From Anaerolineae bacterium (GTDB taxonomy: Bacteria > Chloroflexota > Anaerolineae > Anaerolineales > Anaerolineaceae), in the NCBI GenBank assembly GCA_013314735.1, contig JABUFD010000008.1, forward strand, positions 1 to 64,000: a DNA stretch of 64,000 nucleotides, given 5' to 3'. Below, one piece after another: positions 6,644-55,952 of the stretch. A program made the translations under genes and the position numbers. How positions within the stretch are numbered: position 1 is the stretch's first letter; each line of letters opens with the position of its first letter. The notes beneath the pieces were generated by a model. The model had not been told where the DNA came from, did not search any database, and saw nothing but the letters and a program-made list of their open reading frames with translations.

Positions 6644-8050
6644 ATGGAAGGTTTATTGACAATCGCATTGGTCGCATTTATTGTGATCATCTTTTTCACC
6701 CTGCTGTTCCTGGCCAGCCGCTTCCGCCGCTGCCCCTCGGACAAGATCCTGGTGGTGTACGGCAAGGTGGAAAAAGGCCGTTCCAGCCGCTGTATGCACG
6801 GCGGCGGGGCTTTCATCTGGCCGCTGGTGCAGGATTACGCCTATATGAGCCTGACCCCGATGACGATCAGCATCCCGCTGGAAGGCGCGCTCTCGCTGCA
6901 GAACATCCGCATCAACGTGCCCAGCACCTTCACGGTCGGCATCAGCACCCAGCCGGAGATCATGATGAACGCCGCGGAACGGTTGCTGGGCATCAACCAG
7001 CAGGCGATCGAGGACATGGCCAAGGAGATCATCTTCGGCCAGCTGCGCCTCACCGTGGCTTCGCTGACGATCGAGCAGATCAACCAGGACCGCGAAAGCT
7101 TCCTGGATTCGATCCGCCAGAACGTGGAACCCGAACTGAACAAGATCGGCCTGTACCTGATCAACGTGAACATCACCGACATCACCGATTCCTCCAACTA
7201 CATCGACAGCATCGGCAAGAAAGCCGCCTCCGAAGCGGTCAACAAAGCCCGTGTGGATGTGGCTGAGCAGGAAAAACTGGGTGCGGTGGGTGAATCGCTG
7301 GCGGTGCGCGAAAAGGACATCAGCGTTGCCGAAAACGTGGCAGCTTCCGTCAACGGGCAGAAGAAAGCCGAAACCGAGCGGCGCGTGTACGTGCAGAACC
7401 GCGAAGCGGAAGCCGTGCAGGGCGAAAACCTGGCGAAAGCCAACATCGCCAAGGCCGAAGCCGAACTGGCAATCCAGCAGGCCGAAGCGCGCCAGCGCGC
7501 CGAGATCGCGCGGCGCAACGCCGAAGTGGAGATCCAGAAGGCGCAGTACCTGGCCGAACAGCAGCGCCTGCGCGCCGAGCAGATTGTGCAGCAGGAAATT
7601 GAGAAGCAGCAGGTGGAAATTTCCGCCGAAGCTGAAGCCGAACGTATCCGCCGCATCGCCAAGGGTGAAGCCGATGGCGTGCTGCTGAAGTACCAGGCCG
7701 AAGCCGAAGGCCTCAAGCGCCTGCTGGCGAGCAAGGCTGCCGGCTACAAGGAACTGGTGGCCGGCGCGGGCAATGATCCCCAGGCCGCCGCCACCCTGTT
7801 GCTGTTGGAAAAAATGGCCGACCTGGTCAAGTACCAGACCGAAGCGATCGGCAAATTGCAGATCGACAAGATCACGGTATGGGACAACGGCGGCAGCGGC
7901 GAAGGTTCCGCCACCTCGAACTTCATCGCCAACCTGTTCAAGAGCCTGCCGCCCCTGCACGAGATTTCGAAGATGGCCGGTGTGGAATTGCCCGCCTACC
8001 TCGGCAGCGTGGTGAGCGAAGGCGAAACCGAACCCGCCGAAGAAGCGTAG
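6644..8050 (+). CDS. flotillin-like protein (SPFH/Band 7 domain + EA-rich coiled-coil flotillin domain; FloT/YuaG-like)
   Basis: N-terminal TM, SPFH region, long E/A/Q/R-rich coiled coil (AEAELAIQQAEARQRAEIARRNAEVEIQKAQYLAEQQR). RBS GAAAGGAAA before ATG 6644. Confidence 0.85.
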   Translation: MEGLLTIALVAFIVIIFFTLLFLASRFRRCPSDKILVVYGKVEKGRSSRCMHGGGAFIWPLVQDYAYMSLTPMTISIPLEGALSLQNIRINVPSTFTVGISTQPEIMMNAAERLLGINQQAIEDMAKEIIFGQLRLTVASLTIEQINQDRESFLDSIRQNVEPELNKIGLYLINVNITDITDSSNYIDSIGKKAASEAVNKARVDVAEQEKLGAVGESLAVREKDISVAENVAASVNGQKKAETERRVYVQNREAEAVQGENLAKANIAKAEAELAIQQAEARQRAEIARRNAEVEIQKAQYLAEQQRLRAEQIVQQEIEKQQVEISAEAEAERIRRIAKGEADGVLLKYQAEAEGLKRLLASKAAGYKELVAGAGNDPQAAATLLLLEKMADLVKYQTEAIGKLQIDKITVWDNGGSGEGSATSNFIANLFKSLPPLHEISKMAGVELPAYLGSVVSEGETEPAEEA

Positions 8051-8085
8051 TTTTTAACGCTTGGCCCCTGTTACAGGGAACATTT

Positions 8086-8128
8086 CTGCCCGTGTTCGGC
8101 AATATCACGAACACGGGCAGTTTGTTTT
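8086..8128 (+). terminator. rho-independent terminator after the flotillin gene
   Basis: 13-bp stem ctgcccgtgttcg / cgaacacgggcag with a 9-nt loop, followed by TTTGTTTT. Confidence 0.6.
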
Positions 8129-8147
8129 CCCACCCCGGCCCTCCTTC

Positions 8148-8316
8148 CTCCGCCGCGGTGAAGGCACGGGAACCATTTTCACGCTGCCCCGCCTGCCCCA
8201 TCCCGGAGGTGGGTATGAAAGCAACATACACTGTTACTGCACTTCCCACCTCCGGGATGGAATGGATCGGCGAAACGCTGACCCGGTGAAGGGGAACGCC
8301 ACGCGGACAAACCGCC
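8148..8316 (+). repeat. R1 hairpin repeat, copy 1 (REPIN-like; inverted arms ccatcccggaggtggg / cccacctccgggatgg at 8198-8260)
   Basis: Near-identical to 11462-11628. The 5' module ggcacgggaacc[a/g]ttttcacgctgccccgcctgcccc is shared with 10636-10712 and 13275-13340. Confidence 0.75.
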
Positions 8317-8413
8317 ATTCCCCCCGCCCCCACAGCCCCCGGCATGGGCGGGTTCGGGTATAATCAAACCCAGGCGCACCCACCATTGTCCTGAACGGGG
8401 AGGAATACCCACC

Positions 8414-10072
8414 ATGAACCAGTTGTATTACGGCGACAATCTCACCATCCTGCGGGAGTACATCCCGGCGGAATCCGTCGACCTGATCTACCTCGACCCG
8501 CCCTTTAATTCCAACCGCAATTACAATATCCTGTTCAAGGAAGAAAGCGGGGAACAAAGCGCGGCGTAGTTGACCGCGTTTGAAGATACCTGGCACTGGG
8601 ACATCAACACCGAAGGCCTCTACCAGGAGATGGTCACCTCGGCCGACATGCCGCCGCAGGTGAGCAGCATGATCGCCGCGCTGCGCAATTTTATTGGCAC
8701 CAACCCGATGATGGCGTACCTGGTGAACATGAGCGTGCGCCTGGTGGAACTGCACCGCGTGCTCAAACCCAGCGGCTCGCTCTACCTGCACTGCGACCCC
8801 ACCGCCAGCCATTACTTGAAGGTGGTGCTGGATGCCATTTTTGGGTTTGAGAATTACCGGAACGAAATTGTGTGGAAACGCCAATCCGCGCACAGCGATG
8901 CACGATATAAATTCTCTGACGTGGCTGATATTATCTTCTTTTATGTTAAATCGGGCAAAGCGTTATTCACACCACAATATACAGAACATGACCCGGAGTA
9001 TATTAAGAAATTCTACCGTTATGATGACATGGATGGGCGAGGGCCATATCGCCTTGCTGACATGGCATCACCAAACCCACGCCCAAATATGATGTACGAG
9101 TGGAAGGGATACGGTTATCCGAGCAAAGGATGGCGGTACCAAAGGGATACCATGCAGAAGCTGGATGAGGATGGTCGCATATATTACCCCATAAAAACCG
9201 ATGGAAGCCCAGATTATACAAAGCGATTGGCATTGAAAAGGTACCTTTCAGAACAGGAAGGCTCAATAGTAACTAATATATGGGATGATATCCAGCCATT
9301 GCACGGTGCTACAGCCGAACGCCTTGGTTACCCGACGCAAAAACCGCAGGCGCTGCTGGAGCGCATCATCAGCGCCTCCTCCAACCCCGGCGATGTCGTG
9401 CTGGATCCGTTCTGCGGCTGCGGCACCGCCGTGGCCGCGGCGCAGGCCCTCGGGCGGCGCTGGATCGGGATCGACATCACCCACCTTTCGATTGCCCTGA
9501 TCAAATACCGCATCGAAGACGCCTTCCCCGAGGCCAAATTTGAGGTGCTCGGCGAACCGCAATCGGTGCAGGACGCGCGCTACCTGGCCGAAAACAGCCG
9601 CCACCAGTTTGAATGGTGGGCGCTTTCGCTGGTGCGGGCGCGCCCCGCCGGGGGCGACGGCGGCAAGACCGGCAAAAAAGGCGCCGACCGCGGCATTGAC
9701 GGCATCATCAACTTCATCGACGGCGCCAAAGGTGCGCCGAAACAGATCATCGTGCAGGTGAAATCCGGGCACGTCTCCTCTGCCCACATCCGCGACCTGG
9801 TGGGCACGCTCGAACGCACCAAGGCCGCCATCGGCGTGTACCTCACCCTCGAAGAACCGACCGCCCCCATGCGCAAAGAGGCCGCCGAAGCCGGCTTTTA
9901 CCATTCCGACCTGTGGAACCGCGACTACCCGCGCGTGCAAATCTACACCATCGAAGAACTGCTCTCCGGCGCCGCGGTGCAGATGCCGCCCACCAGCGCC
10001 AACGTCACCTTCCAGCGCGCCCAGCGCCAGAAAAGCGAAGACAGCACCCGCCAGCCGGATTTGTTCGGTTAA
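8414..10072 (+). pseudogene. beta-class N6-adenine/N4-cytosine DNA methyltransferase fused to a C-terminal Mrr-type (PD-(D/E)xK) restriction endonuclease-like domain; interrupted by an in-frame TAG at 8567-8569
   Basis: N-terminal DLIYLDPPFNSNRNYN (motif IV) lies in the same frame as downstream ..AFEDTWHW.., ending in DPFCGCGT (motif I). These are separated only by an amber codon at the position where homologues have Q. C-terminal DRGIDGI..IIVQVKSG matches the Mrr catalytic motif. TATAAT at 8358-8363 and a GGGGAGGAA RBS precede ATG 8414. Confidence 0.7.
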
Positions 10073-10110
10073 GGGGAAGGGGGTAATGTTGGATTTTCAC
10101 ACATTGCTTG

Positions 10111-10139
10111 TTGCATTTTCGCACATCAAGGGATATAAT
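10111..10139 (+). promoter_or_regulatory. sigma70-like promoter for the XRE gene (TTGCAT -17 bp- TATAAT)
   Basis: TTGCAT at 10111-10116, 17-bp spacer, TATAAT at 10134-10139. Confidence 0.5.
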
Positions 10140-10182
10140 CATAGCGTGAAGTAATTTGCGCCTATGTGAAAGAGAGAATCCC

Positions 10183-10515
10183 ATGAACAGCGAATTGTCG
10201 ATGCATTTGAAAGAAATGCGGACCAAATTGAATTTCAGCCAGGAATATGTTGCCAGGTTGATGAACGTCAACCGCAGTGTGATCACCGCGATTGAATCCG
10301 GCAAACGCAGCGTCAGCGCGGAAGAATTGGATCAATTCTCGGCCATTTACGGCGTCTCGATGGAAATGCTTCTGCACGGAGAAGATGACCTTAACCATGT
10401 GCGTGTCTTCAACCGCATGTTTGACGCGCTGAGCGAGACCGACCAGCAGGAGATCCACAACCTGATGCAATTCAAGATCAACCTCAAGCGATCACTGGCA
10501 TCGGATGAACCATAA
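10183..10515 (+). CDS. XRE-family helix-turn-helix transcriptional regulator
   Basis: LNFSQEYVARLMNVNRSVITAIESGKRSVSAEEL is a Cro/C1-type HTH. ATG 10183 after a consensus promoter. Confidence 0.8.
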   Translation: MNSELSMHLKEMRTKLNFSQEYVARLMNVNRSVITAIESGKRSVSAEELDQFSAIYGVSMEMLLHGEDDLNHVRVFNRMFDALSETDQQEIHNLMQFKINLKRSLASDEP

Positions 10516-10635
10516 ACCGCACGTTATATACCAGCATCAATCTCCCGAAGAACTTGCCGCAGATGTTCTTCGGGAGTACCATAGTTATGCGTTCAACCCA
10601 TCCAACACCCACAACATCCCACTCACCTTCCCCCT

Positions 10636-10712
10636 GCCGCGGAGAAGGCACGGGAATCATTTTCACGCTGCCCCGCCTGCCCCATCGCCTCCGGCATGGG
10701 CGGGTTCGGGTA
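10636..10712 (+). repeat. R1 repeat, copy 2 (5' module only; hairpin deleted)
   Basis: gaaggcacgggaatcattttcacgctgccccgcctgcccc followed by ccggcatgggcgggttcgggta, which also follows copy 1 at 8330-8352. Confidence 0.65.
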
Positions 10713-10749
10713 GGGGGAAAGAAGGGATGACTGCATATTCATCGACTGC

Positions 10750-10799
10750 TTGACAAATTTGCCGTCATCCTGTACAGTAATACTGTACAGACACGGAGT
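10750..10799 (+). promoter_or_regulatory. yefM-yoeB promoter with tandem palindromic operator (2x CTGTACAG)
   Basis: TTGACA 10750-10755, 17 bp, TACAGT 10773-10778. Self-complementary CTGTACAG at 10770-10777 and 10783-10790 overlaps the -10 box. GGAG RBS before ATG 10805. Confidence 0.55.
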
Positions 10800-10804
10800 G
10801 TAAA

Positions 10805-11083
10805 ATGACGATTCAGACAACCTATACCCAGGCCCGTGACGGCCTGGCAAAATTGATGGACCAGGTGACGCATAATCGTGAAGTGGTGATTATCCAGCGC
10901 CGCGGTGAAGAGGAAGTAGCGATGATTGCCGCAGCGGAATTGGAAAGCCTGATGGAGACCGCCTACCTGCTGCGTTCCCCTGCCAATGCCGAACGCCTGC
11001 TTTCCGCCCTGGGGCGCGCCCTGAAACACGAGGGCACCCCGCAAAGCCTCGATGATCTGCGGCAGGAGACCGGGCTTGTCTAA
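10805..11083 (+). CDS. yefM: Phd/YefM family type II antitoxin
   Basis: MTIQTTYTQARDGLAKLMDQVTHNREVVIIQRRG..ESLMETAYLLRSPANAERLL is a typical YefM sequence. Overlaps the downstream toxin gene. Confidence 0.85.
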   Translation: MTIQTTYTQARDGLAKLMDQVTHNREVVIIQRRGEEEVAMIAAAELESLMETAYLLRSPANAERLLSALGRALKHEGTPQSLDDLRQETGLV

Positions 11084-11345
11084 AAAAGCGCGCGTAGCGG
11101 TCTTTCAGCCCGAGTTCATCGAGGACCTGCGCCATTGGGTGGAAACCGACCGCAAGCTGGCGCTGCGTACCTTCGACCTGATCGAAGCCATCTTGCGGGA
11201 TCCGTTCAACGGCATCGGCAAGCCGGAACCACTTAAATACCTGGCGCCGGGTACATGGTCCCGCCGGCTGACGCAGGAGCATCGTATCGTGTACCTGGTG
11301 CGCGATGAACAGATCGACTTTCTCCAGGCACGCTACCATTACTGA
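11052..11345 (+). CDS. yoeB: YoeB/Txe family type II toxin (ribosome-dependent mRNA interferase)
   Basis: ..FQPEFIEDLRHWVETDRKLALRTFDLIEAILRDPFNGIGKPEPLKY..SRRLTQEHRIVYLV.. matches YoeB. The true start is probably TTG 11076, overlapping the yefM stop by 8 nt. Confidence 0.8.
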   Translation: MICGRRPGLSKKARVAVFQPEFIEDLRHWVETDRKLALRTFDLIEAILRDPFNGIGKPEPLKYLAPGTWSRRLTQEHRIVYLVRDEQIDFLQARYHY

Positions 11346-11461
11346 GCGGATATTTCCCTTGATCTTTGGGATTAACGTTGTACAAATCTGCAATTGGAAT
11401 GCAGATTTGTACAGGTTTGTTAACATTTTCATCCACCCGGCCCATATTGACCCCTGTGCCC

Positions 11462-11628
11462 CCCGCCGCGGTGAAGGCACGGGAACCGTTTTCACGCTGC
11501 CCCGCCTGCCCCATCCCGGAGGTGGGTATGGAAGCAACATACACCGTTACCGCACTTCCCACCTCCGGGATGGAATGGATCGGCGAAACGCTGACCCGGT
11601 GGAGGGGAACGCCACGCGTACAAACCGC
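11462..11628 (+). repeat. R1 hairpin repeat, copy 3 (full length, REPIN-like)
   Basis: Near-identical to copy 1, including hairpin arms ccatcccggaggtgggtatggaagcaacatacaccgttaccgcacttcccacctccgggatgg. Confidence 0.75.
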
Positions 11629-11707
11629 AAAGGATGCCGCAGCTTCCCTGCCGGATGCGCCTGCGTTGTGCGATGTTGCCAAACGACATCGGCTGCGCCG
11701 CGCAGCC

Positions 11708-13183
11708 CTAGGCCTCCGCACTGAACAAATACGCCGTACCGGGCTGATCCCAACCATCCAGAAAAACTTCCGCGGTCCAATACTTGTCCGGGTACGGAAT
11801 ATTGACCCCATCGCCAAGGATGATATTCCTTGTCACATCATACATGGCGTCGCTGTCATAGCCCTCGCGTTTGTGCATGGCCTCCACATCGCCGGAGAAA
11901 GTGGCGCAGGCAAACTGGGAACAGAACGGCGGCCCCGCTTTTCCATCGTTCACCGGTACGAAGTCGAAGAACAGGAATCCTTCCGGGACAGGGGTGGATG
12001 CTTTCATCAGGCGCCCCCAAAAACCGTGCCACGGCCCCACATCCACGCCCAACCCATAATGGTGCATGAACAATATATCATAGCCAAAATCTGATTCGTA
12101 CCCGCTCATCGCGTCCAGGGTGCGGAAGAGTTCTTTCCGCTGTTCCAGGTTGTCCAGGTCAGTCAGCTCCTGCCCAATGAAGCGCATGGCAGGCATTTTT
12201 TTGTATTCAAAGCTCTCCACCCGGAAGCCCTGCTGCTGTTTCTTCACCGTATCGGGCATAAACAACGCCCACTGCACCTGGGCATCGCAATTTTTCAGAT
12301 AATTGACATAGCCAAAGACCTCCACGCTGTCGGTGCCTGTCGGCCCGGTTTTGTTTCCCGCGATTTTCTCCCGAATGCCCCGCTCCCGCATGACTGAGAA
12401 GTCGGCAAACATGTTGGCCACCGTTTCCCGTAACCCCTCCTCGCAGGGCTGCCCGGACAGTTCGTCATCAAATCGATCCAGGGCTTTGAACACAGCCGCA
12501 TTGACCACGCCGGCGGGTTCGAGCTCTTTCAGGCATGCCCGCAGCTGGTCATTTTGTTGCTTGAAGCGCCCAAGCACCCCCTGCATCAAAATCTGCTCAT
12601 TTTCCGCCAGTTGATCCGCACCCCATTGGGAATCATCAAGGATCCATTCGGTCAATTCATCAAAGACCCCCGGATTTTGCCCCCTGGCTTTGCCTGCCCA
12701 GCTGACCAACCGCTTATACTTCTCGATGGCTGACAGTGGTTCGCCCTTGTCATCGTCGATCTCGTTCCAATCGACCAGGTAAAATTCGCCCATTTGTGGG
12801 TATGTCATATCAAAACCTCCTTGAATGTTGATAGTAATCGTCAGGGGGTGGAACATCCTGACCCTGCCCCGCCGGATTTTCGATGGCGGCACCCCGTGAA
12901 ACCGCGTGAACGCCCTGGAAAAGCTCTCCTGTGTATCGTACTGATAGCGGAACGCCACATCCATGATTTTGCTCGCTGGCTGCAGCAAATCCTGCGCGGC
13001 CAGGCTCATGCGCCGATTGCGGATATACTCACCGACGGTGATGCCCATGACCAGGTGAAACAACAGCTGAAAATGGGAGCTTGATGTATACGCCTGTCTT
13101 GCCAACTCGTCGATGTTGAGTTCGCTGGTCAGGTTATTTTCGATGAACGCTATGGTTTTTGACAGGCTCTGAATCCAGTTCAT
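11708..13183 (-). CDS. AraC-family transcriptional regulator with large (~380-aa) C-terminal domain of unknown function
   Basis: N-terminal AraC HTH: IENNLTSELNIDELARQAYTSSSHFQLLFHLVMGITVGEYIRNRRMSLAAQDL...DVAFRYQYDTQESFSRAFTRFHGVPPS. Start either at the MNWIQ.. Met (13183) or at 13234. Confidence 0.7.
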   Translation of the reverse strand: MNWIQSLSKTIAFIENNLTSELNIDELARQAYTSSSHFQLLFHLVMGITVGEYIRNRRMSLAAQDLLQPASKIMDVAFRYQYDTQESFSRAFTRFHGVPPSKIRRGRVRMFHPLTITINIQGGFDMTYPQMGEFYLVDWNEIDDDKGEPLSAIEKYKRLVSWAGKARGQNPGVFDELTEWILDDSQWGADQLAENEQILMQGVLGRFKQQNDQLRACLKELEPAGVVNAAVFKALDRFDDELSGQPCEEGLRETVANMFADFSVMRERGIREKIAGNKTGPTGTDSVEVFGYVNYLKNCDAQVQWALFMPDTVKKQQQGFRVESFEYKKMPAMRFIGQELTDLDNLEQRKELFRTLDAMSGYESDFGYDILFMHHYGLGVDVGPWHGFWGRLMKASTPVPEGFLFFDFVPVNDGKAGPPFCSQFACATFSGDVEAMHKREGYDSDAMYDVTRNIILGDGVNIPYPDKYWTAEVFLDGWDQPGTAYLFSAEA

Positions 13184-13274
13184 CCACTGCCCTCCTTCAT
13201 CCATATCATACAGTCGGATTGCGAAAAAAGCCATGTCAGAAAATACGATGTTTTGTCCGTTCCCTGCCTTCCCA

Positions 13275-13340
13275 CCGCCGCGGGGCAGGCACAGGAACCG
13301 TTTTCACGCTGCCCCGCCTGCCCCGCACACGAACCGTGCA
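13275..13340 (+). repeat. R1 repeat, copy 4 (5' module only)
   Basis: ggcaggcacaggaaccgttttcacgctgccccgcctgcccc, immediately upstream of tRNA-Phe. Confidence 0.65.
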
Positions 13341-13397
13341 AAGGCTTGACGCTTTGGGCAGTGTATTGTAAAATCAAAGCGCGGTGAAAACCCGTCA

Positions 13398-13470
13398 GCC
13401 GAGATAGCTCAGTTGGTAGAGCACACGACTGAAAATTGTGGTGTCGTCAGTTCGATTCTGTCTCTCGGCA
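13398..13470 (+). tRNA. tRNA-Phe (anticodon GAA)
   Basis: 73-nt cloverleaf: acceptor gccgaga/tctcggc, D-arm gctc-AGTTGGTA-gagc, anticodon stem cacga/ttgtg, loop CTGAAAA (U33, GAA, A37), T-loop TTCGATT. One T-T mismatch in the T stem. CCA not encoded. Confidence 0.8.
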
Positions 13471-13471
13471 T

Positions 13472-13508
13472 AGAGCGCCCCCCCTGCGGGGCGCTCTGCA
13501 TTTTCATT
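13472..13508 (+). terminator. rho-independent terminator after tRNA-Phe
   Basis: agagcgcccc / ggggcgctct stem followed by gcattttcattt. Confidence 0.65.
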
Positions 13509-13569
13509 TGCCGCTGCACAAATTCCCAATCGCGGGTACAATCAAACCATTCCATTCGGGACGGATACC

Positions 13570-14820
13570 ATGACCACCACCACTCACCTGTCACAGCGCC
13601 AACCGGCGCAGATCAAAGCCTCGCTCTATTACGGCATCATGTGGGGCATGATGGCGCTTTCCACCACCTTCATCTCGATCGACCTCAACCACCGCGGCGT
13701 GACCGAAACCCAGTGGGGCATCATCTCGGCCCTGCGCGCGCTGATGACCTTCCTCGCCGCGCCGATCATCACCCGCCAGGCCGACCTGCGCCGCACGCGC
13801 GTGCGCTGGCTGCGCTGGATCATGATCCTGCAGGCGGTTGTGATGCTGATGTTCATGATCCCGCGCCACTTCGGTGCCTTCCTGGTGCTGTCGCTGCTGT
13901 CCGCCGTCATCGGCTCGGCCGTGATGCCCCTCGGCGATGGGGTGATCGTGCGCATGGCGCAGAAACACAATTTAGAATTCGGGCGGCTGCGCCTGTGGGG
14001 CTCATTGGGGTTTGCCGTGTTCGGCACCTTCGGCGGCTGGCTGTGGAGCGAGGTCGGCTATTCGTTCATCTACATCGCCGGCTTCCTCGGCTACCTGGTG
14101 GTGGCATTCTTCGCCGGCAACCTCGAAGAACCGGCCGTGCACGAGGCGGAGATCGAAATTCCCGTGCCCGAAGAAGAGGGCCTGCCGCTGCCCAAACCGA
14201 AAACGATCATTCAACTGCTGTTGGGCGATACCGTGCTGCTGCTGTTCCTGGTGGCGGCCTTCCTGCGCTCCTCTTCTGAACTGATGTTCTTTTCCTTCTC
14301 CGGCATCTACATCGACGCCCTCACCGGCAACGCCTTTTATGCCGGGCTGATCAACGGCGGTTCGGCCATCCTGGAAATCCCGGTGATGATCAACGCCCAG
14401 CGCCTGATCCAGCGTTTCGGGCTGGCACCGCTGGTGGTGGTGGGGTTCTTTGTCCAGGCGGCAGGCCTGGCGGTTTTCGCGCTTTCCAGCAGCCCGTGGC
14501 TGATGTATGCCGGCTCAACGCTGCGCAACATGGGCTTCGCGCTGTATTTTGTCGCGGCGGTGCAGTTCATCGACCGGCGCGCCGGCAAGAACGATGCCAC
14601 CAGCTACCAGGGCCTGCTGAGCGGGATCAGCTGGGGGCTGGCGCCGCTGCTGGCCACCCCGCTGGCCGGGATTGTCTACCAGCAGTGGAGCGCGCAATGG
14701 GTCTTCCTCCTCGCCACCCTGATCTGCACCTTCAGCGCGGTGGTGATGATCCCGGTGGCCGTGCTCTTCCGCCGCGAAGAGAAACAGCGTGCCCACCAGG
14801 CGGAAACCTCCCGCTTGTAA
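13570..14820 (+). CDS. MFS-type transporter (12 predicted TM helices)
   Basis: Hydrophobic periodicity throughout, basic residues in short loops between TM helices (e.g. ..TRQADLRRTRVRW..), 416 aa. TACAAT at 13533 upstream of ATG 13570. Confidence 0.75.
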   Translation: MTTTTHLSQRQPAQIKASLYYGIMWGMMALSTTFISIDLNHRGVTETQWGIISALRALMTFLAAPIITRQADLRRTRVRWLRWIMILQAVVMLMFMIPRHFGAFLVLSLLSAVIGSAVMPLGDGVIVRMAQKHNLEFGRLRLWGSLGFAVFGTFGGWLWSEVGYSFIYIAGFLGYLVVAFFAGNLEEPAVHEAEIEIPVPEEEGLPLPKPKTIIQLLLGDTVLLLFLVAAFLRSSSELMFFSFSGIYIDALTGNAFYAGLINGGSAILEIPVMINAQRLIQRFGLAPLVVVGFFVQAAGLAVFALSSSPWLMYAGSTLRNMGFALYFVAAVQFIDRRAGKNDATSYQGLLSGISWGLAPLLATPLAGIVYQQWSAQWVFLLATLICTFSAVVMIPVAVLFRREEKQRAHQAETSRL

Positions 14821-14880
14821 AGCAACAGGAAAGCGGGAATATCCGGGCTGAATACCGGGTGCCGTTGCGTCCGGGTTCGC

Positions 14881-15723
14881 TCAACCTGCCGCCCGGCCGC
14901 GGTTCCCTTCCAGCCATCCCACGGCGAAATCGACCAGGGCACGCTGGCGCAGCAGGCGGGTTTCCGCCATGCCAACCTGCCCGATGATGACCTCCGCGGG
15001 GCAGGCCGCCTCAAACGCGGCGCCCAGGGCGGGGAAGTCATCGCTGCCGTAATCGAGGTCATCGTACCACACCCATTGGCGCGCGCCTTCCACCAGCAGC
15101 GGGGCGCCTTCGCGCACCATTGCCTTGCCGGGAAAATCGGCGCGGTTTTCCGCCAGGTGGAGCGAGGTGTTGTTGCCGTGGCCCACCCCCAGCAACAGCA
15201 CCCACCCATCCAGGTCATACAGCCGTGCCAGGGGGGAGCCTTCGCCCATGGCCGGGGTGAGGGCATGGTTGGCGGTGAGGAATTCCGCCTGCGGGCCGCG
15301 CGCGCAGAATGAAACCTGCGGGTGCAGGCTGCGCCGCGTGCCATCCTGCTTGCGGAAGCACTCCGCGGCGGCGCCCATCCCCCGCGTGGGGGTCAGGTCG
15401 GGGGAAAAGGGCGGCATGCTGGCACGGATCGTATCCCACCACGCCGGCGGGACGGGCGGGTGCTGCCAGTTGGCGGGGTTGGAAAGGTCGCCGCTGTGGG
15501 CGGGCATCATCAGGGTGCCGGCCGGGCCGAGGGCATCTTCCAGCGCCAGCACCAGGGCGGGGGCGCTGCCGCACACCCACCCCAGCCGGCTGAGGGCGCT
15601 GTGCACCAGCAGCACCATGCCGGGGCGCACGCCGAGTGCCGCCAGGTCGGCGGTGATCTGCTGTTGGGTCATCATCCGGCTGGAAAGCACGGCGCGTTCT
15701 TCGCCGCGGATATCATGGGTCAT
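14881..15723 (-). CDS. AAC(3)-family aminoglycoside N3-acetyltransferase-like protein
   Basis: ITADLAALGVRPGMVLLVHSALSRLG..GTLMMP..NWQHPP.. and the C-terminal conserved blocks match the AAC(3) antibiotic N-acetyltransferase family. Start at ATG 15723 or the internal MMTQQQ Met; the track ORF extension to 16272 crosses the repeat element and is rejected. Confidence 0.75.
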   Translation of the reverse strand: MTHDIRGEERAVLSSRMMTQQQITADLAALGVRPGMVLLVHSALSRLGWVCGSAPALVLALEDALGPAGTLMMPAHSGDLSNPANWQHPPVPPAWWDTIRASMPPFSPDLTPTRGMGAAAECFRKQDGTRRSLHPQVSFCARGPQAEFLTANHALTPAMGEGSPLARLYDLDGWVLLLGVGHGNNTSLHLAENRADFPGKAMVREGAPLLVEGARQWVWYDDLDYGSDDFPALGAAFEAACPAEVIIGQVGMAETRLLRQRALVDFAVGWLEGNRGRAAG

Positions 15724-15794
15724 GGCGGGTTCCTCCGGGGGGTCTGGTTTTCTATCCATTGTACCGCTGTTTGCGCGGCGGAACGCCTCGGTGG

Positions 15795-16030
15795 TGAAGT
15801 TTGGGAATGGCAAAACATACACACCCGAACCTCCATCCCGAAGGGAGGTCTCCATCCCGAAGGGAGGTCTCCATCCCGAAGGGAGGTCTCCATCCCGAAG
15901 GGAGGTCTCCATCCCGAAGGGAGGGACATGCGCCGCTTGCACTCGTGACCTGACTGCCTCCCTCCGGGATGGGATGGCGAAGGCATGTTGGAAACGGCAG
16001 CCCGGAACGTCAAAGTCACGCCGCGGTGCC
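15795..16030. repeat. solo copy of the composite hairpin repeat (H family) with 5 tandem 19-bp arm repeats (cctccatcccgaagggaggt) x5
   Basis: Five tandem copies at 15830-15928, then gggacatgcgccgcttgcactcgtgacctgactgcctccctccgggatgggatggcg and a tail ggcccggaacgtcaaagtcacgccgcggtg that match units of the arrays at 51.96 and 56.12 kb. Confidence 0.75.
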
Positions 16031-16105
16031 CACCCCGCCTGCAACCCGCAGGGCGGGTTTGCCGTATCATTAATAGAGCTTTGTCGCAATCGAAAGGAAA
16101 CCTGC

Positions 16106-18022
16106 ATGAACCACACAACCCGAACGCAAACCAGGGGAAGGCTGATGCTGGCGCTCTTGATCGCCGCCCTGTGCCTGGCCGCCCCGCTGCCGGTACGCGC
16201 CCAATCCGCCGCCGACCTCGACGACCCGCTGGCAATGGCCGCTTTCCTCGAAGGCGCGTTTGCCGCCGCCATGCTGGAACACCATGTACCCGGCGCGGTG
16301 GCGGTGGTGGTGAAGGACGGCGCGGTGCTGCACGCCGCCGGTTACGGCTATGCCGACCTGGAAACACCCACCCCGGTCGACCCGGCCACCACCCTCTTCC
16401 GCCCCGGTTCGGTCTCCAAGCTGTTCACCTGGACCGCCGTGATGCAGATGGTGGAAGCCGGCCAGCTTGATCTCGATGCCGACATCAACCGCTATCTCGA
16501 TTTTGAGATCCCCTCCACCTTCCCCCAGCCGATCACCCTGCGCCACCTGCTGACCCACACCCCCGGGTTCGAGGACCAGGGCCAGGGGCTGTTCAAGCTC
16601 GATCCCGCCGAAATGATCTCCCTGGGCGAGTACCTGAAACGTGCCATCCCGGCACGGGTGTACCCGCCGGGTGAGATCGCGGCCTATTCCAACTACGGCT
16701 CAATCCTGGCCGGCTACATCGTGGAGCGCGTGAGCGGGATGCCGTTCACGGCGTATGTGGAAACCCACATCCTTGCCCCGCTGGGGATGGAACACGCCAC
16801 CTTCCAGCAGCCCCTGCCGCCCAACCTCCAGGCCGATATGGCGGGCGGGTACAACTACCTGAACGGTGAATACCTGCGGGGGTCGTTTGAACTGGTGGTC
16901 GGCTCTCCCGCCGGCGGGTTGAGTGCTTCGGGGCTGGATATGGCGCGCTTCATGATCGCCCATCTGCAACACGGTGAATACAACGGCGCGCGTATTTTGC
17001 AGGAAGACACCGCGCAGCAGATGCACAGTCCGCTCTACAGCCCTGACCCGCGCATCGACTGCATGGCGCACGGCTTTTTCTACCAGCACATCAACGGGCA
17101 GTACACGCTCTCGCACGGCGGTGACACCATGCTGTTCCATTCCAGCCTGAGGCTGCTGCCGGAACACAACCTGGGGATTTTCATCTCCACCAATGGCACC
17201 AACGGTTCGATGGTGGTGGAAACCGTAACCAAAGCCTTCATGGACCGCTACTTCCCGGTGGCGGTAGCCGAACTGACCCCCACTGCCGATTTCGCCGAAC
17301 GCGCGGCGCTGTACCGCGGCAATTATATTTCCGCCCGCAGCAATGTGCATGGACTGGAAAAAATACTTAACCTGATGACCCCAACGTCGGTCAGCATTAC
17401 CCCGGACAACCGCGTGGTATTGAACTATGCCGGGCAGGCGACTTCCTTCATCGAGGTGGAACCGGGCCTGCTGGTCGATCCGCTCGATCCGGATAACCGG
17501 ATTGTGATGCATGCGTTGAACGGGCGCGTACGCCTCTCACCGCCCATGCCGTTTGAATTCCTCAAAATCCACTGGTACGAAACCAGCGCCTTCCAGGGCG
17601 TGCTCTTCGTTGGCGGGCTGCTGATGTTTCTCGGGGCCGGTGTGGGATTCATCAGCGCGTTCCTGCGCCGCCGCAAGGCACACGAACCGGTTCCCGCGGG
17701 GTCACGCCTGGCACGCTGGACGGCGGCGCTGTTCGGGATGGCCCTGCTGCTGTTCCTGGCGGGATTCCTGGTGGTGTTCTCCGATATCGACCCCGCGCTG
17801 GGTGTTCCCACCGTGTTCTTTGCCGACCCCGGCACCCTGCCCATGCTGCTGGTCATCCTGCCGCTGGTGCTGGTTGCGCTGGGCGCGCTGATGGTGGTGT
17901 TTGCTGCCGCGGCATGGCGCAAGCGCTGGTGGAGCGCCGGTGGGCGCGCCTGCTACAGCCTGCTGGCGCTGTGGGCGCTGGGGCTGGTGTGGGCACTGGC
18001 GTACTGGAACCTGCTCTTCTGA
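16106..18022 (+). CDS. serine hydrolase of the beta-lactamase/PBP (class C-like) family with signal peptide and C-terminal multi-TM region
   Basis: Signal peptide MLALLIAALCLAAPLPVRAQS. S-x-x-K motif at FRPGSVSKLF; YSNYG (Y-x-N-like) and HGG (KTG-like) elements. Four hydrophobic helices in the last ~130 aa. ATG 16106 with AAAGGAAA RBS. Confidence 0.75.
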   Translation: MNHTTRTQTRGRLMLALLIAALCLAAPLPVRAQSAADLDDPLAMAAFLEGAFAAAMLEHHVPGAVAVVVKDGAVLHAAGYGYADLETPTPVDPATTLFRPGSVSKLFTWTAVMQMVEAGQLDLDADINRYLDFEIPSTFPQPITLRHLLTHTPGFEDQGQGLFKLDPAEMISLGEYLKRAIPARVYPPGEIAAYSNYGSILAGYIVERVSGMPFTAYVETHILAPLGMEHATFQQPLPPNLQADMAGGYNYLNGEYLRGSFELVVGSPAGGLSASGLDMARFMIAHLQHGEYNGARILQEDTAQQMHSPLYSPDPRIDCMAHGFFYQHINGQYTLSHGGDTMLFHSSLRLLPEHNLGIFISTNGTNGSMVVETVTKAFMDRYFPVAVAELTPTADFAERAALYRGNYISARSNVHGLEKILNLMTPTSVSITPDNRVVLNYAGQATSFIEVEPGLLVDPLDPDNRIVMHALNGRVRLSPPMPFEFLKIHWYETSAFQGVLFVGGLLMFLGAGVGFISAFLRRRKAHEPVPAGSRLARWTAALFGMALLLFLAGFLVVFSDIDPALGVPTVFFADPGTLPMLLVILPLVLVALGALMVVFAAAAWRKRWWSAGGRACYSLLALWALGLVWALAYWNLLF

Positions 18023-18145
18023 TCCTCCGGATTGCAGCGCACAAACGCAAACGCCCGGGCTTGGCCTGGGCGTTTGAGCTGTGTGTTGTGTGTGTTGTTA
18101 TAGTCGATCAAGGGTCTAGGAGAACCTCGAAAACGTGCGTCTTGT

Positions 18146-18568
18146 TCAGCGGCTGAGCAGCCAATCAATGATCAGGGTCTTTTCTTCCTCGTTGATCTTG
18201 GCACCGTAGCCGATCATGCGGTCGAGGGTTTCTTCCCATTCTTCACGGGTTTTGTCAGAATTCAGCACGCGGTCGATATCGTGTTTGCCATCCAGTTTTT
18301 CCGTGATCAGGGCGATCATATCATCTTCAGAGGGCAGGGCGCTTTCGGCGGGGGCCTGTTCCTCGGTTTCGGCAGCGGGTTCAGCGGCTTCCGCTTCGGC
18401 AGCTTCCGGTTCTGCTTCTTCAGCTTCGGCCGGGGCTTCTTCCGCGGCGCTGTCTTCAGCGGCTGCCGGTTCTGCGGCGGGGGCGGGTTCTGCGGTTGTG
18501 CAGGCGGAAATCACCAGCAGGGCGGTGATCGCCAATATCAGTACAATCCAGAGCTTTTTGCGTTGCAT
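18146..18568 (-). CDS. small acidic lipoprotein (E/A/P-rich linker, C-terminal globular domain)
   Basis: Signal peptide with lipobox LVISAC, then an AEEAPAEAEEAEPEAAEAEAAEP low-complexity stretch. Confidence 0.55.
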   Translation of the reverse strand: MQRKKLWIVLILAITALLVISACTTAEPAPAAEPAAAEDSAAEEAPAEAEEAEPEAAEAEAAEPAAETEEQAPAESALPSEDDMIALITEKLDGKHDIDRVLNSDKTREEWEETLDRMIGYGAKINEEEKTLIIDWLLSR

Positions 18569-18979
18569 CGGTTCCTCCAGGGAATCGGAATTACTTAATA
18601 CTTATCAAATAAATCTAACAAAATAATACCTGTTCTGGAAATGGAAATCAAGCCCGCGGGGACGTTCTAACAAAACATTAATGCAGTCAGCCCGTCCACC
18701 CTGCCGCTTTTCCCTATTGACTCTCCCCCCGGGGGAGGCTGTATACTCTTCGATGGAAGACAGCGAACGAAAGGAAAGGAGAACGGATGGTCTGTGGATG
18801 GATGACAGCAGGGCGAACCTGCCAGGCGCTTGCCGCACCCTGCGCGGCGCGGCGCCAGCGGCCAACCTCACGCCGCACAGCGCGGCGCATGTGCCTCCAC
18901 CCCGAAGCGGGATCGGGCGGCTTGCTGCCCGGCCCGGCAGGGCGTACAATCAATCAAGATCAAGGAAAGGAATAACACC

Positions 18980-19831
18980 ATGGATGAACACTGGCTTCAA
19001 TACTACCGCCAACCGGGCGTGATGACCGACCTCACGCCCCTGGGCGATGCCCTGGGGGAACTCCCGCGCGACCTGCCGGCGCTGGTGCGCCTGGTGCAGG
19101 GGGTGATGCTGCACGTCTTCTGGGCGGAGCACGAAGGCTTTGCGCTGGACGATGCGCGCCGCGCCGAGGTGGGCCTGCGCCCCGCCGCCGACAGTCTGCG
19201 CCGCGCCCTGGCGCTGGACCCCGCCCCACTGGCGCAGCCGCGACCGTTGGCGCGCAAGGTGGTCGGCAACTGCCGCCACTTCTCCGTTCTGCTGTGTGCC
19301 CTGCTGCAGCGCCAGGGCATCCCGGCCCGGGCGCGCGCGGGCTTCGGAACGTACTTTCTGCCCGACCATTACGAGGACCACTGGGTGGCGGAGTACTGGC
19401 ATGCCGCCCGGCAGCGTTGGGTGATGGTCGATGCCCAGCTCAGCCCGTTCCAGCTGGAGGCGCTGCGGATAGCGTTTGACCCGCTGGATGTGCCCCCGGC
19501 GCAGTTCTGGACGGCCGAACGCGCCTGGCTGGCGGCGCGCGCCGGTGAGATCGACCCTGAGCAGTGCGGCATCTTTGACATGCACGGGATGGACTTCATC
19601 CGCGGCAGCCTCGGGCTGGACTTCGGCGCGCTCAACAAGTTCGAGGTGCTGCCGTGGGACGGCTGGGGCATTTTCCAGCGCGAACCGGACCAGATCGATG
19701 CCGACGGCTGGCGTTTCCTCGACCAGCTGGCAGCGATGATGGCGGATGCCGACCAGCACCTGCCGGAGCTGCAGCGCCTGTTCCAGCAAGATGAGCGCGT
19801 GCGCCCCCCGCAACTGGCGGAACTGCCGTAG
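18980..19831 (+). CDS. transglutaminase-like cysteine protease superfamily protein
   Basis: GNCRHFSVLLCALLQRQGIPARARAGF ... DHWVAEYW ... VMVDAQ matches the Cys-His-Asp core of the transglutaminase-like domain. AAGGAAAGG RBS before ATG 18980. Confidence 0.7.
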   Translation: MDEHWLQYYRQPGVMTDLTPLGDALGELPRDLPALVRLVQGVMLHVFWAEHEGFALDDARRAEVGLRPAADSLRRALALDPAPLAQPRPLARKVVGNCRHFSVLLCALLQRQGIPARARAGFGTYFLPDHYEDHWVAEYWHAARQRWVMVDAQLSPFQLEALRIAFDPLDVPPAQFWTAERAWLAARAGEIDPEQCGIFDMHGMDFIRGSLGLDFGALNKFEVLPWDGWGIFQREPDQIDADGWRFLDQLAAMMADADQHLPELQRLFQQDERVRPPQLAELP

Positions 19832-19833
19832 GC

Positions 19834-20361
19834 TTACTGCGCCTTGCGGCGCTCAAACCACTTCAGCACACCCACCACCACCGCGGCCACCGAGACCGCC
19901 AGCAAGGCCCACTTGGCGCTGGCGGCCAGCGCCGCCAACAGGGTCGGCAGGGGATCGAGCGCCTGCGGCTGCTGCAGCATGAAAATGTGGAAGATGTTCT
20001 CGACCCAATCCAGCACCCCTGCAGCCAGCGGGGCGAGGAACAGGGTATCACCGCCGGGTTCGTAGTGTTCGTGGGAGGTCAGGTTGGCGATCGCCCCGGA
20101 AAGGGCCACGGCATACGCCAGCGGGAAGAGGAAATCGACATACATCATGTTGAGGTAGGCGCGCACACCGTCTTCGCCCCATTCGGCCAGGATCGCCTGC
20201 ATGCTTTCCACGCTGTAGGCGGTCTGCATGGTGAACAACCCGGTTTTGCCGCGCAGGGCGTCGCCCTGGATGATGGCAAAAGCGGCCAGGCACAGCAACA
20301 CCACCAGTAATGCCAGCACGCGCACCGCTTTGCGCCGGATCAAGGAAAACAATCGAGCCAT
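19834..20361 (-). CDS. hypothetical membrane protein
   Basis: 175 aa with 4 predicted TM helices; no diagnostic motifs. Confidence 0.5.
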   Translation of the reverse strand: MARLFSLIRRKAVRVLALLVVLLCLAAFAIIQGDALRGKTGLFTMQTAYSVESMQAILAEWGEDGVRAYLNMMYVDFLFPLAYAVALSGAIANLTSHEHYEPGGDTLFLAPLAAGVLDWVENIFHIFMLQQPQALDPLPTLLAALAASAKWALLAVSVAAVVVGVLKWFERRKAQ

Positions 20362-20485
20362 GGATGGTTTCTCCTTCGAAATTGTTAGATGATGGGGTTA
20401 ATCTTAATCCAATTTCGCATTTCGTGCGGGGGATTTTCCCCGCAATGTGACTTAAGTCGTATCGCCCTGCGGAAAAATGCGCTAT

Positions 20486-20734
20486 CCTGTAAGTATGAAC
20501 CAACAACAACCCACCCCACACCGCGAACCCATATTGCCCCGGCTGGACCGGCAGCGCTGCACCCGCTGCGGCGAATGCGTTACCGCCTGCCCGGCGCATG
20601 TGATTGAAATGGCACAGGGCCAGCCCGTGTTCGCGCGCCCGCAGGATTGCACCTACTGCACCGCCTGTGAAGGCGCCTGCCCGGCCGGTGCCATCCGCTG
20701 CGCGTTCACGGTGGCCTGGGATGACCCACTTTAA
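20486..20734 (+). CDS. 2x[4Fe-4S] ferredoxin-like protein
   Basis: Two C-x2-C-x2-C-x3-CP clusters (CTRCGECVTACP, CTYCTACEGACP). Start 20477 or 20486; immediately precedes the DUF438 gene with overlapping reading frames. Confidence 0.7.
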   Translation, partial: PVSMNQQQPTPHREPILPRLDRQRCTRCGECVTACPAHVIEMAQGQPVFARPQDCTYCTACEGACPAGAIRCAFTVAWDDPL

Positions 20735-26146: not shown

Positions 26147-26269
26147 TGTCTATAAAAATGGCTACAATCATGGATAGTATTCTCTGCAGCCATCGGCGAT
26201 TGATCATGAATGTGATCAATTTTCCTGAACAGGCGGGGAATCATCGAAGAGGATCGAGGAGTGTACAGC
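26147..26269 (+). promoter_or_regulatory. promoter (TACAAT at 26163) plus ~100-nt leader, identical to the leader of the downstream paralog
   Basis: 26163-26272 is base-for-base identical to 29483-29592. Contains a uORF (MDSILCSHRRLIMNVINFPEQAGNHRRGS..) overlapping the kinase start out of frame. Confidence 0.5.
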
Positions 26270-29200: not shown

Positions 29201-29359
29201 ATTGGCAATATCGTGTTTTTGGACCTGACAACCAATATAATACTGGGTGTGTTGCGGCAACATTTCGCCTCGATCCGGTGGTTGACGTTCAGTGTTGATG
29301 ACCACGAGTTGATCTCATTCGGTGATGACGGCATAACCAACATTTGGGGAATCCAATAA
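26270..29359 (+). CDS. Ser/Thr protein kinase - Pro-rich linker - TM - C-terminal beta-propeller (WD40/PQQ-like repeats)
   Basis: GVGGMGAVYRGKD, VAIKRL, HRDVKPGNILF, DFGIVKL, GTPTYMAPE. Hydrophobic helix WVWVLGGLGVLLFLGVALVLLI. Repeated ~40-aa blocks with SPDG/APDGS..L..G..DG.. motifs. GAGGAG RBS 9 nt before ATG 26270. Confidence 0.85.
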   Translation: MPYMVDHRYLVGEQLGVGGMGAVYRGKDTRLQRDVAIKRLQIFGSQADVDQFMKRFEREAIAMAQLQHPNIVGVLDFGQDDQGIFLILQYMPGGSLKDRMTAPFNPQSAAALLAPIADALHYVHDQGMIHRDVKPGNILFDARGNPMLADFGIVKLVEDTPGATLTGTGTAIGTPTYMAPELIGGEFDHRVDQYALGIIFYEMVTGKAPFTGRTPMEAMVAHKYEPLPDPRLLCPGLPQDAWDLIVRVLAKDPEQRYEDSGQFSAALRRLGQPPTPTPQPQPKPGEEPTSLVEDELPFNLPAKTPQPPAPGMQAVSEEDETQGVITPGKGTPVPPPPFVGNETPGGAPLSAPSLVRDEALKPPAKKKRAWVWVLGGLGVLLFLGVALVLLITMLTKGIMEPAATQVAQTHLETKVPTITSRPQPTVTPTLPSQIDNNTASALQVKTRIGKGNANIALYSPDGSLLVIGNSSGFYLLGADTGKELSSVQDIYVTSLAIAPSGNALATLDQDGYLTLWDIQNKFAPAILQQYPAAAPGASLRAATFSPDGNSLAYADYDTIFFYSFESGTVTGQVEWTDSNISQLQFNPDGQSIYGAANQLGLIGLWDMNTLSLTTTFPVGFVFNFALAPDGSLLAVYDSNEGTLKFFKPANASQFMEPIQTNGYVSDLAFSADGASLYGAINGNTISRWILVDDRSQLTYPLNNDQAYLFDLAPDGSSLAWTGFGAVGVFDFDTEQAKFDTDQFDYTGVLVEGWVNGEVLYVNDDHNGSVILRNTSGIAKQHLDSTAITTWLDSVTVSSNGQYLAARSYVNGAIVLLVWDLNTKQLLKQVPLADWVGDFRFSDDSQFLTVVNGMTATVYRTDTWGIHYGYTVTDAALTIAKYYPEFDLLVLAGYGRPLLINPLSGYTVELPLNVPAEGVFDLELSRDGSLLFLVSGKSLLIWNIPDQTFVLEAYDLLPNNAVELALNTSETLLAIGDNIGNIVFLDLTTNIILGVLRQHFASIRWLTFSVDDHELISFGDDGITNIWGIQ

Positions 29360-29367
29360 CTTTTGTA

Positions 29368-29400
29368 AGAAAAGGGCAGCCTTTGAGCTGCCTTTTTCTT
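29368..29400 (+). terminator. candidate rho-independent terminator between the kinase paralogs
   Basis: aaaagggcagc / gctgccttttt hairpin with T-tract. Confidence 0.45.
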
Positions 29401-29466
29401 ACTCAAATTACCTGGCAATCCGTTTTCCCATACGCCACATTCTTCGGTTGCTTTCCCCTCTTGCAT

Positions 29467-29589
29467 TGTCATCTGAAAGGGTTACAATCATGGATAGTAT
29501 TCTCTGCAGCCATCGGCGATTGATCATGAATGTGATCAATTTTCCTGAACAGGCGGGGAATCATCGAAGAGGATCGAGGAGTGTACAGC
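29467..29589 (+). promoter_or_regulatory. duplicate promoter/leader (identical to 26147-26269)
   Basis: Identical 110-bp stretch including TACAATCATGGATAG and the RBS. Confidence 0.5.
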
Positions 29590-55914: not shown

Positions 55915-55952
55915 CAGGCAGTTCCATCCCCATCAGAAAAGGTTTGTATTCC

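Follow-up and report, generated by a model that had tools for sequence, protein, structure and literature searches.

Analysis of a 64-kb stretch of DNA from an Anaerolineae bacterium (contig JABUFD010000008.1; hereafter the window, to which all coordinates refer unless a contig with an L-number is named) revealed an intergenic repeat element, designated H, in which one arm of a hairpin is present as five perfect tandem copies of a 19-bp unit. The element lies between divergent genes for an AAC(3)-family aminoglycoside N-acetyltransferase and a beta-lactamase-family serine hydrolase (bla). The tract is very probably a slippage-prone minisatellite, or variable number tandem repeat (VNTR), within a lineage-specific, non-coding mosaic repeat family; as in VNTR loci, the copy number differed between close strains, at both of the tracts that could be compared (2/2). 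The family appears not to have been described before, and the phenomenon itself is ordinary; H can best be regarded as a new form of a known kind, namely mosaic intergenic repeats that contain a VNTR.

The 19-bp tract and the solo H unit

Tandem Repeats Finder (TRF) identified a period-19 tract at 15831-15924 with 4.9 copies, 100% matches and a score of 188 (unit CTCCATCCCGAAGGGAGGT). The exact 18-mer arm was found to start at 15831, 15850, 15869, 15888 and 15907, which agreed with a first-pass annotation of this DNA that had reported five perfect tandem arm copies. A degenerate form of the arm motif had 29 matches in the window compared to 0.01 expected from shuffled sequence. As the copies are perfect and the arm matches so far exceed the shuffled expectation, the 19-bp tract is real and far beyond chance. 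Each 19-mer was composed of the 18-nt left (5′) arm of the main hairpin and one T linker base. The 19-bp length given for this half-site in the first-pass annotation was therefore that of the repeat unit, although the string it quoted has 20 letters; its limits for the element (15795-16030) were corrected to 15783-16029. The features of the element are as follows.

15783-16029, + strand: solo H unit (repeat families D3/D5/D6, unit alignment, and nhmmer with the family profile)
15831-15924, + strand: 19-bp minisatellite of five perfect left arms (CTCCATCCCGAAGGGAGG), T-joined and all of the GAA variant (TRF and exact matches)
15909-15924, + strand: 5′ strand of the stem, inside the innermost arm copy (alignment A2, columns 3-18 and 51-66)
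15925-15956, + strand: hairpin loop of 32 nt (GACATGCGCCGCTTGCACTCGTGACCTGACTG), conserved within H and unrelated in the sister family F2
15957-15977, + strand: right arm (CCTCCCTCCGGGATGGGATGG), with its stem part at 15957-15972; always single-copy (family D6)

The solo unit was ordered as head ACGCCTCGGTGGTGAAGTTTGG, block V1, CCCGAAC, five left arms, loop, right arm, block V2 and tail CCGGAACGTCAAAGTCACGCCGCGGTG, with the 11-mer ACGCCnCGGTG at both of its ends. The unit alignment gave the same plan for the family: a head (ACGCCnCGGTGGTGAA(G/C)GTTGG), V1 of ~22 nt and CCCGAAC precede the hairpin module, in which the left arm CTCCATCCCGRAGGGAGG occurs 1, 2 or 5 times per window unit with a T between copies; the 32-nt loop, the right arm, V2 of ~19 nt and the tail CCGGAACGTCAAAGCCACGCCGCGGTG follow. 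When the arm was collapsed to one copy, the H unit was constant at 159 nt, or 170-171 nt together with the 11-nt junction motif that it has in common with the next unit. Pairing of the left arm with the right gives a perfect stem of 16 bp, closed by the 32-nt loop. In the solo unit the single right arm can pair with any of the five left-arm copies, and the GAA variant present in the window copy results in one A.C stem mismatch (U.G if read on the - strand). The 19-mer is itself quasi-palindromic, with 16/19 positions self-complementary.

Arm number among the H units of the window

The H unit was found ten more times in the window, in two head-to-tail arrays (A and B), and a profile search of the window revealed no further copies. 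The first-pass annotation had called the element solo; this is true of the 15783-16029 locus, whereas elsewhere in the window the family occurs mostly as tandem arrays.

51965-52880, + strand: array A, a 5′-truncated unit and five head-to-tail H units (TRF, unit alignment, profile matches)
56138-56886, + strand: array B, four head-to-tail H units and a last partial unit without the hairpin module (unit alignment, profile matches)

The units of array A carried 1, 2, 1, 2 and 1 arm copies, the third of these being an inverted arm, and those of array B carried 2, 1, 1 and 2. Over the ten full units of the window the left arm was therefore present once in five, twice in four and five times in the solo unit. 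The right arm was never duplicated; only the left arm, already doubled in four other units, was expanded further.

Array A had periods of 159 and 178 bp and a higher-order period of 338 bp, and both arrays had ragged ends. As the 338-bp period and the ragged ends are typical of unequal exchange, the arrays look like products of unequal recombination. The inverted left arm of array A (CCTCCCTCCGGGATGGAG, 52412-52429) corresponded to three substitutions in the quasi-palindrome, and the unit that carries it is unable to form the long hairpin. Template switching in a quasi-palindrome would be expected to leave just such an inversion. With one arm-inverted unit and a last unit of array B that has no hairpin, not every unit has been kept intact.

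Arm number in a second strain

A second strain, represented by JGI metagenome 3300048839, had flanks that were 98.2-98.6% identical to the window, and its orthologous contigs covered the solo locus (L011), the first unit of array B (L014) and the start of array A (L012). The solo ortholog on L011 encoded six arm copies (five GAA and an innermost GGA) compared to five GAA copies in the window. The first unit of array B on L014 had five arm copies (one GAA and four GGA) compared to two in the window. As the GAA variant was amplified at the solo locus and the GGA variant at array B, amplification has been recurrent and independent. The window allele (five GAA) can be derived from an allele like that of L011 (five GAA and a GGA) by the loss of one unit; loss of the innermost GGA unit would leave the A.C mismatch seen in the stem.

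The first-pass annotation had proposed replication slippage at the hairpin arm, with arm number across H copies and strains as the check. Arm number was variable, not constant, both among paralogs (1, 2 and 5) and between strains (5 vs 6 and 2 vs 5), and slippage is thus supported.

Alignment of L012 (1-97, reverse strand) showed the ortholog of array A to consist of one full unit followed by sequence absent from the window, the first feature of which was a terminator-like hairpin on the + strand (GCACCCATCCCCTATGGGTGC-TGTTGCCTTTT). Differences between the strains consequently extend to the count of whole units or to the adjoining DNA.

That the copy number is an artefact of assembly, with a short tandem repeat collapsed or expanded in a metagenome-assembled genome (MAG), was considered extremely improbable. 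The region is hard to assemble: Logan short-read contigs of SRR6186653, which were 100% identical to the window, were broken at 15852 and 15954, on both sides of the tract. However, the 94-bp tract is within the span of an ordinary short read, and arms in multiple copies were also seen in L014 and at five further sites of the window. Additionally, L011 crosses the orthologous tract with unique flanks, as does the MAG window itself; these assemblies are independent, so the tract does not stem from an error of a single assembly.

Proposed mechanism of copy-number change

The tract appears to expand and contract recurrently, and slipped-strand mispairing would best explain this. Once a unit has two arm copies, these perfect direct repeats would let a nascent strand pair again with its template in a shifted register during replication; unequal recombination between sister copies would be an alternative route, and by either route whole 19-bp units would be gained or lost. 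Hairpin formation probably assists, as each arm copy could pair with the lone 3′ arm and each, being quasi-palindromic, would stabilise looped-out intermediates. Slippage or unequal exchange is favoured because the copies are perfect, because only the pre-duplicated arm was expanded while the right arm is single, and because the changes are recurrent and locus-specific. As most units carry one copy, we infer that the extra arm copies are dispensable for whatever the element does.

Hairpin conservation and the sister family F2

A sister family with the architecture of H, designated F2, was represented by four copies.

8147-8315 and 11460-11628, + strand: full F2 copies
10630-10712 and 13271-13327, + strand: head-only F2 copies

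The F2 arms were CCCCATCCCGGAGGTGGG and CCCACCTCCGGGATGGAATGG, and the F2 loop was unrelated to that of H. The H and F2 arms differed at two stem positions, both of them compensated (G-C to U-A and A-U to G-C). Over 12 hairpin modules the stem positions were paired in 99% of cells, compared to 43-63% when the partner was slid by 1-3 columns. This difference, together with the compensated changes between H and F2, shows that arm complementarity is maintained, which would be consistent with a role of the hairpin either as DNA or as RNA. The F2 copy at 10630 looks 'empty', its head being joined straight to the terminator-like CCTCCGGCATGGGCGGGTTCGGGTA, whereas at 8147 the corresponding head/terminator junction is interrupted by ~143 nt that include the hairpin.

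The hairpin was the only structure common to all units. RNAalifold analysis of 12 units returned no more than the inverted repeat plus a tail stem of 5 bp; there was no covariation for extra structure in these units, the covariation term of +0.66 kcal/mol being unfavourable, and a second hairpin at the junction did not fold consistently. The mini-hairpin (tccc-gaa-ggga) that the first-pass annotation had drawn within a single 19-mer does form, but it is weak (-2.6 kcal/mol as DNA and -5.9 kcal/mol as RNA) and no more stable than shuffled sequence (z ~-0.8).

Several of these observations weigh against a neutral, slippage-driven minisatellite. The strain comparison comprises two strains and two loci, and whether slippage or unequal recombination is at work, and at what rate, was inferred from it. 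The mini-hairpin, no more stable than shuffles, gives no support to a special hairpin-promoted mechanism. Furthermore, arm sequence and pairing have been conserved between H and F2 despite the divergence of these families; every H unit, full or partial (11 in total), and each of the four F2 copies is on the + strand; and each of the three H loci has genes for antibiotic-modifying-type enzymes next to it. The uniform orientation, the adjacency to such genes and the conservation of the arms hint at function or targeting beyond a neutral model. GC skew was uninformative on the strand bias.

Comparison with known repeat systems

BOX elements of Streptococcus pneumoniae are composite intergenic repeats with the organisation boxA-(boxB)n-boxC; boxB number differs between strains, elements with more copies vary more, and the stem of the remaining modules stays intact whether boxB is missing or multiplied (PMC3049150). 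H is similar in that it has an internal tandem module of strain-variable number (n = 1, 2, 5, 6). It is found in a Chloroflexota host, however, and is set beside BOX by the described architecture, not by module sequence. The amplified module of H is 19 bp and constitutes one arm of the main stem rather than an insert between terminal modules, and whole H units form long head-to-tail arrays. Transcription and mobility have been shown for BOX, whereas H is known here from sequence alone.

The REP/BIME elements of Proteobacteria are palindromic units of alternating orientation that are associated with RAYTs and have a GT(A/G)G head 5′ of the palindrome; their complementarity is preserved by paired changes and the length of their arrays is strain-variable (PMC2817692). 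H is likewise extragenic and GC-rich and is clustered in arrays, with short quasi-palindromic arms that alternate and two kinds of linker (32 nt and ~91 nt) repeated 4-5 times per array, and its arm complementarity is also kept by paired changes. In contrast to BIMEs, the H stem is preceded on its 5′ side by CCCGAACCT (+ strand) or CCGCCATCCCAT (- strand), neither of which is GT(A/G)G. The H unit is also much longer (159 nt) and contains conserved non-palindromic blocks, and no RAYT/Y1 transposase was found by Pfam among the open reading frames (ORFs) of the 64-kb window. Membership of H in either group is thus not supported: it has no GT(A/G)G head, no RAYT in the window and a host from another phylum, and it resembles BOX by description only.

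In an alternative that we regard as rather unlikely, H and F2 would be mobile elements resembling MITEs, REPINs or BIMEs, unable to move on their own and dependent on a transposase acting in trans from a gene outside the window, such as a RAYT or an IS200/IS605-like Y1 enzyme; the arms would then have multiplied as a by-product of this enzyme acting on hairpin DNA, and not through slippage. RAYTs have been proposed as drivers of BIME dynamics (PMC2817692). The BIME-like layout of alternating arms with two linkers and an arm complementarity that has survived two double changes are consistent with mobility, as are the 'filled' and 'empty' F2 sites (8147 and 10630), the last unit of array B without its hairpin module and the 11-bp direct repeat (ACGCCnCGGTG) bounding the solo unit. 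This 11-mer is, however, also the normal array junction motif and need not be a target-site duplication. The ragged array ends also argue against mobility, as does the lack of a conserved GT(A/G)G head adjoining the stem on either strand, and Pfam scans of the window ORFs returned nothing that matched a transposase, an integrase, a reverse transcriptase or a replication protein. The nearest other lineages, with bla homologues of 60-62% protein identity, offered no empty orthologous site; the closest homologue (60%, contig L019) had a different gene neighbourhood and no H-like sequence over 16 kb of context. MITEs have terminal inverted repeats and a target-site duplication; in H the 16-bp inverted arms are internal to the 159-nt unit, and the 11-mer at the ends of the solo unit could be either such a duplication or a junction motif.

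An identity as integron attC sites was rejected: CCCGAAC has no complementary GTTCGGG 3′ of the stem, there is no R/L box symmetry, there are no ORFs between the abutting units and no integrase is encoded in the window. A CRISPR-like identity was likewise rejected, as no cas genes and no unique spacers between units were found.

Bacterial VNTR or minisatellite loci, such as those of the MIRU type, consist of perfect head-to-tail short units whose number changes between close strains, a change best explained by slipped-strand mispairing. The H tract has this structure and this variability. It differs from such loci, and from contingency loci, in that it lies outside any ORF or promoter spacer and is part of a dispersed element, not a stand-alone locus.

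Gene context of the solo locus and possible functions

The neighbouring genes agreed with the divergent AAC(3)-like and beta-lactamase-family flanks of the first-pass annotation, as confirmed by Pfam.

14881-15723, - strand: AAC(3)-family aminoglycoside N-acetyltransferase gene (PF02522, Antibiotic_NAT, E 1.8e-88; NCBI: AAC(3) family N-acetyltransferase)
16034-16060, + strand: terminator-like hairpin CCCGCCTGC-AACCC-GCAGGGCGGG followed by TTT (predicted fold), just 3′ of the element
16106-18022, + strand: beta-lactamase-family serine hydrolase gene, bla (PF00144, E 6.9e-67; NCBI NSW54167.1)

The intergenic region between these genes is 382 bp and the AAC(3) gene has a GGAGG ribosome-binding site. 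The only promoter-like hexamers around the solo copy were TACAAT (the reverse complement of 15758-15763), a putative -10 for AAC(3), and TATCAT (16065-16070) for bla. The element and the terminator-like hairpin occupy the whole gap between these hexamers, and the left edge of the element overlaps the position expected for the -35 that would accompany TACAAT. The terminator-like hairpin was kept in L011, in which an A-to-G change preserves a wobble pair, and the same module closes F2 copies (as in that at 10670-10712). The 19-bp tract is upstream of both genes, at a distance of 68-161 bp from the putative AAC(3) -10 and of 182 bp from the bla start codon. An influence of the element on either gene, as suggested by the first-pass annotation, would be possible on this geometry only. 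The tract is unlike a phase-variable contingency locus: it is located in neither an ORF nor a -35/-10 spacer, so no classical on/off switch is apparent.

The first-pass annotation had offered an iteron-like or multimerised protein-binding site as the other reading of the tract. Iterons are usually imperfect copies spaced ~22 bp apart. The H tract resembles them in having several direct ~19-bp repeats side by side; it differs in that its copies are perfectly identical and contiguous and lie on a chromosome between two enzyme genes, with no DnaA boxes, AT-rich unwinding region or rep gene near the tract. An iteron origin was rejected, as the Pfam scans returned no rep gene among the window ORFs.

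In a more general form, the five 19-mers would be a multimerised site whose copy number sets the occupancy of a regulator of the AAC(3) or bla promoters, of a nucleoid protein, or of a recombinase or transposase encoded elsewhere; we judge this highly unlikely. Direct 19-bp repeats that are quasi-palindromic (16/19) would suit a dimeric binder, the arm is conserved between H and F2 while the loops are unrelated, and the gap that separates two divergent core-promoter candidates is taken up by the element. On the other hand, neighbouring sites 19 bp apart would not share a face of the helix, most units have one arm, the array units are far from promoters, and near-identical strains differ in copy number with no compensating change. 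Neither a rep protein, transposase or integrase among the window ORFs nor a candidate partner DNA-binding gene adjoining the element was found by Pfam. Because there is no partner gene, because the spacing is off the helical repeat and because most units are single-armed, the iteron reading lacks support. On the sequence evidence, both it and a regulatory reading appear unsupported.

It is also unlikely that the H unit is a small-RNA gene or a cis-acting leader RNA module in which arm number tunes RNA activity or the expression of AAC(3) or bla. The arms would then be transcribed as + strand stem-loops with the Shine-Dalgarno-like GGGAGGU, or as - strand hairpins capped by C(UUCG)G. Such an RNA would fit the blocky conservation, in which conserved blocks are split by V1 and V2, the single orientation of all copies and the + strand terminator-like hairpins after the solo unit and after the array in L012. 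On the - strand, TTGACG was recognised by eye in the tail of 8/12 units; it is identical to the -35 of the window tRNA promoter and lies 16-18 nt upstream of a semi-conserved CAACTT, so that V2 would be the promoter spacer. However, the candidate -10 does not have the TA start of TATAAT, and sigma-70 promoter and terminator scans identified no site inside the arrays or the solo region. V1 and V2 were complementary neither to each other nor to the rest of the window, where matches were at chance level. The inverted repeat itself was the only part of the unit with covariation, and the hairpin has been lost from one unit by arm inversion and the hairpin module is absent from another. A search of Rfam 15 gave no match to H: the sole gathering-level match in the window was the tRNA at 13398-13470, the best sub-threshold match was DUF1874 RNA (21.6 bits against a threshold of 42), and nothing at E <= 1 was returned for 15700-16120.

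Arrays A and B, which are co-oriented on the + strand (51965-56886 overall), bracket a 3.3-kb block of genes that also encodes a small membrane protein.

52969-53574: chloramphenicol-phosphotransferase-like protein (CPT)
53574-54038: GNAT
54046-54447, - strand: unclassified ORF
54571-55914: Eis-like GNAT

A broader functional proposal would make the H units functional modules, either small RNAs or protein-bound DNA, for the AAC(3), bla, chloramphenicol phosphotransferase and Eis-like/GNAT genes, with the hypervariable arm number serving as a heritable and reversible tuner of expression; alternatively, the co-oriented arrays would be recombination substrates that amplify or delete the CPT-GNAT-Eis block. 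We consider this distinctly unlikely; what small probability it has comes from the uniform orientation of the copies, the antibiotic-modifying-type genes beside all three H loci and the position of the two co-oriented arrays on either side of the CPT-GNAT-Eis block.

Distribution of the family

As far as public data show, the family seems to be species-restricted. The right-arm 21-mer had no exact match in GTDB genomes (one per species), JGI metagenome contigs or viral contigs, and BLAST analysis of a two-unit segment returned no match in plasmids or phages. A six-frame pseudo-protein query, designed to recover spurious ORFs over such repeats, had no match among 5.8 billion proteins. Neither H nor F2 was found in relatives of the flotillin neighbourhood of the window. 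A gapped hairpin pattern searched against GTDB and JGI revealed only unrelated nested palindromes in Planctomycetota-like contigs and a few chance matches. These palindromes (L003 3138-3198, L004, L006, L007 and L008, from metagenome and Planctomycetota MAG contigs) had inner arms of CCATCCCGGAGGGATG / CATCCCTCCGGGATGG, which share 14/16 bases with the H arm and have no other similarity to H; the inner hairpins were embedded in longer inverted repeats (gccattagccggtggt...accaccggctaatggc).

Significance and other features of the window

H represents a mosaic intergenic repeat family, apparently undescribed, that contains a 19-bp VNTR of its own and comes from a phylum on which little work has been done (Chloroflexota, class Anaerolineae). 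It indicates that a BOX-like variable internal module and BIME-like alternating palindromes recur outside Firmicutes and Proteobacteria. The tract is usable as a strain marker for this uncultured Anaerolineae lineage and marks a site where short-read assemblies break. The family would matter more if its association with antibiotic genes, or the gene blocks bracketed by its arrays, proved functional.

The window proteins are deposited under NCBI accessions NSW54160-NSW54195. In Chloroflexota relatives that are more distant (L015-L018), ferredoxin and DUF438 genes come immediately after the flotillin gene, whereas ~12.6 kb separates flotillin from DUF438 in the window (~8050-20700), with an F2 copy at the left edge. 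This stretch encodes a DNA methylase-Mrr fusion, a helix-turn-helix/toxin-antitoxin-like pair, an AraC regulator, the tRNA (13398-13470), an MFS transporter, AAC(3), bla and others, an arrangement that suggests the insertion of an island.

A different multi-module repeat family was present at 34690-35082 and 44182-44397 (for example GACATTCTGCGGGTAACTTRCGTTCTCCCCTCGACAGGCTCGGGGAGCGTGTTAATGG, with 11-19-bp sub-repeats). These two copies bracket genes encoding GmrSD (37252-39150), a type I restriction-modification specificity subunit, a HEPN protein and HsdR (41095-44139). A further repeat family consisted of a 49-nt intergenic sequence (CACGGATTTTTTTCCTCTTTATCCGCGTCGATCCGTGTAATCCGTGGTT) in three copies (803-851, 903-951 and 49814-49862). 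A 23-bp tandem repeat (GTAATCGAAATTACAGCTAGTCT) with a small palindrome per unit was identified at 57924-58022 (4.3 copies, 88% identity), in or adjoining the end of the - strand ORF at 58009-58989. Finally, two adjacent paralogous genes encoding Ser/Thr-kinase / WD40 beta-propeller proteins (26261-29359 and 29581-32697) contained a 300-nt stretch of 87% identity, and a third kinase gene at 1817-4069 had a conserved segment in common with this pair (26261-32697).

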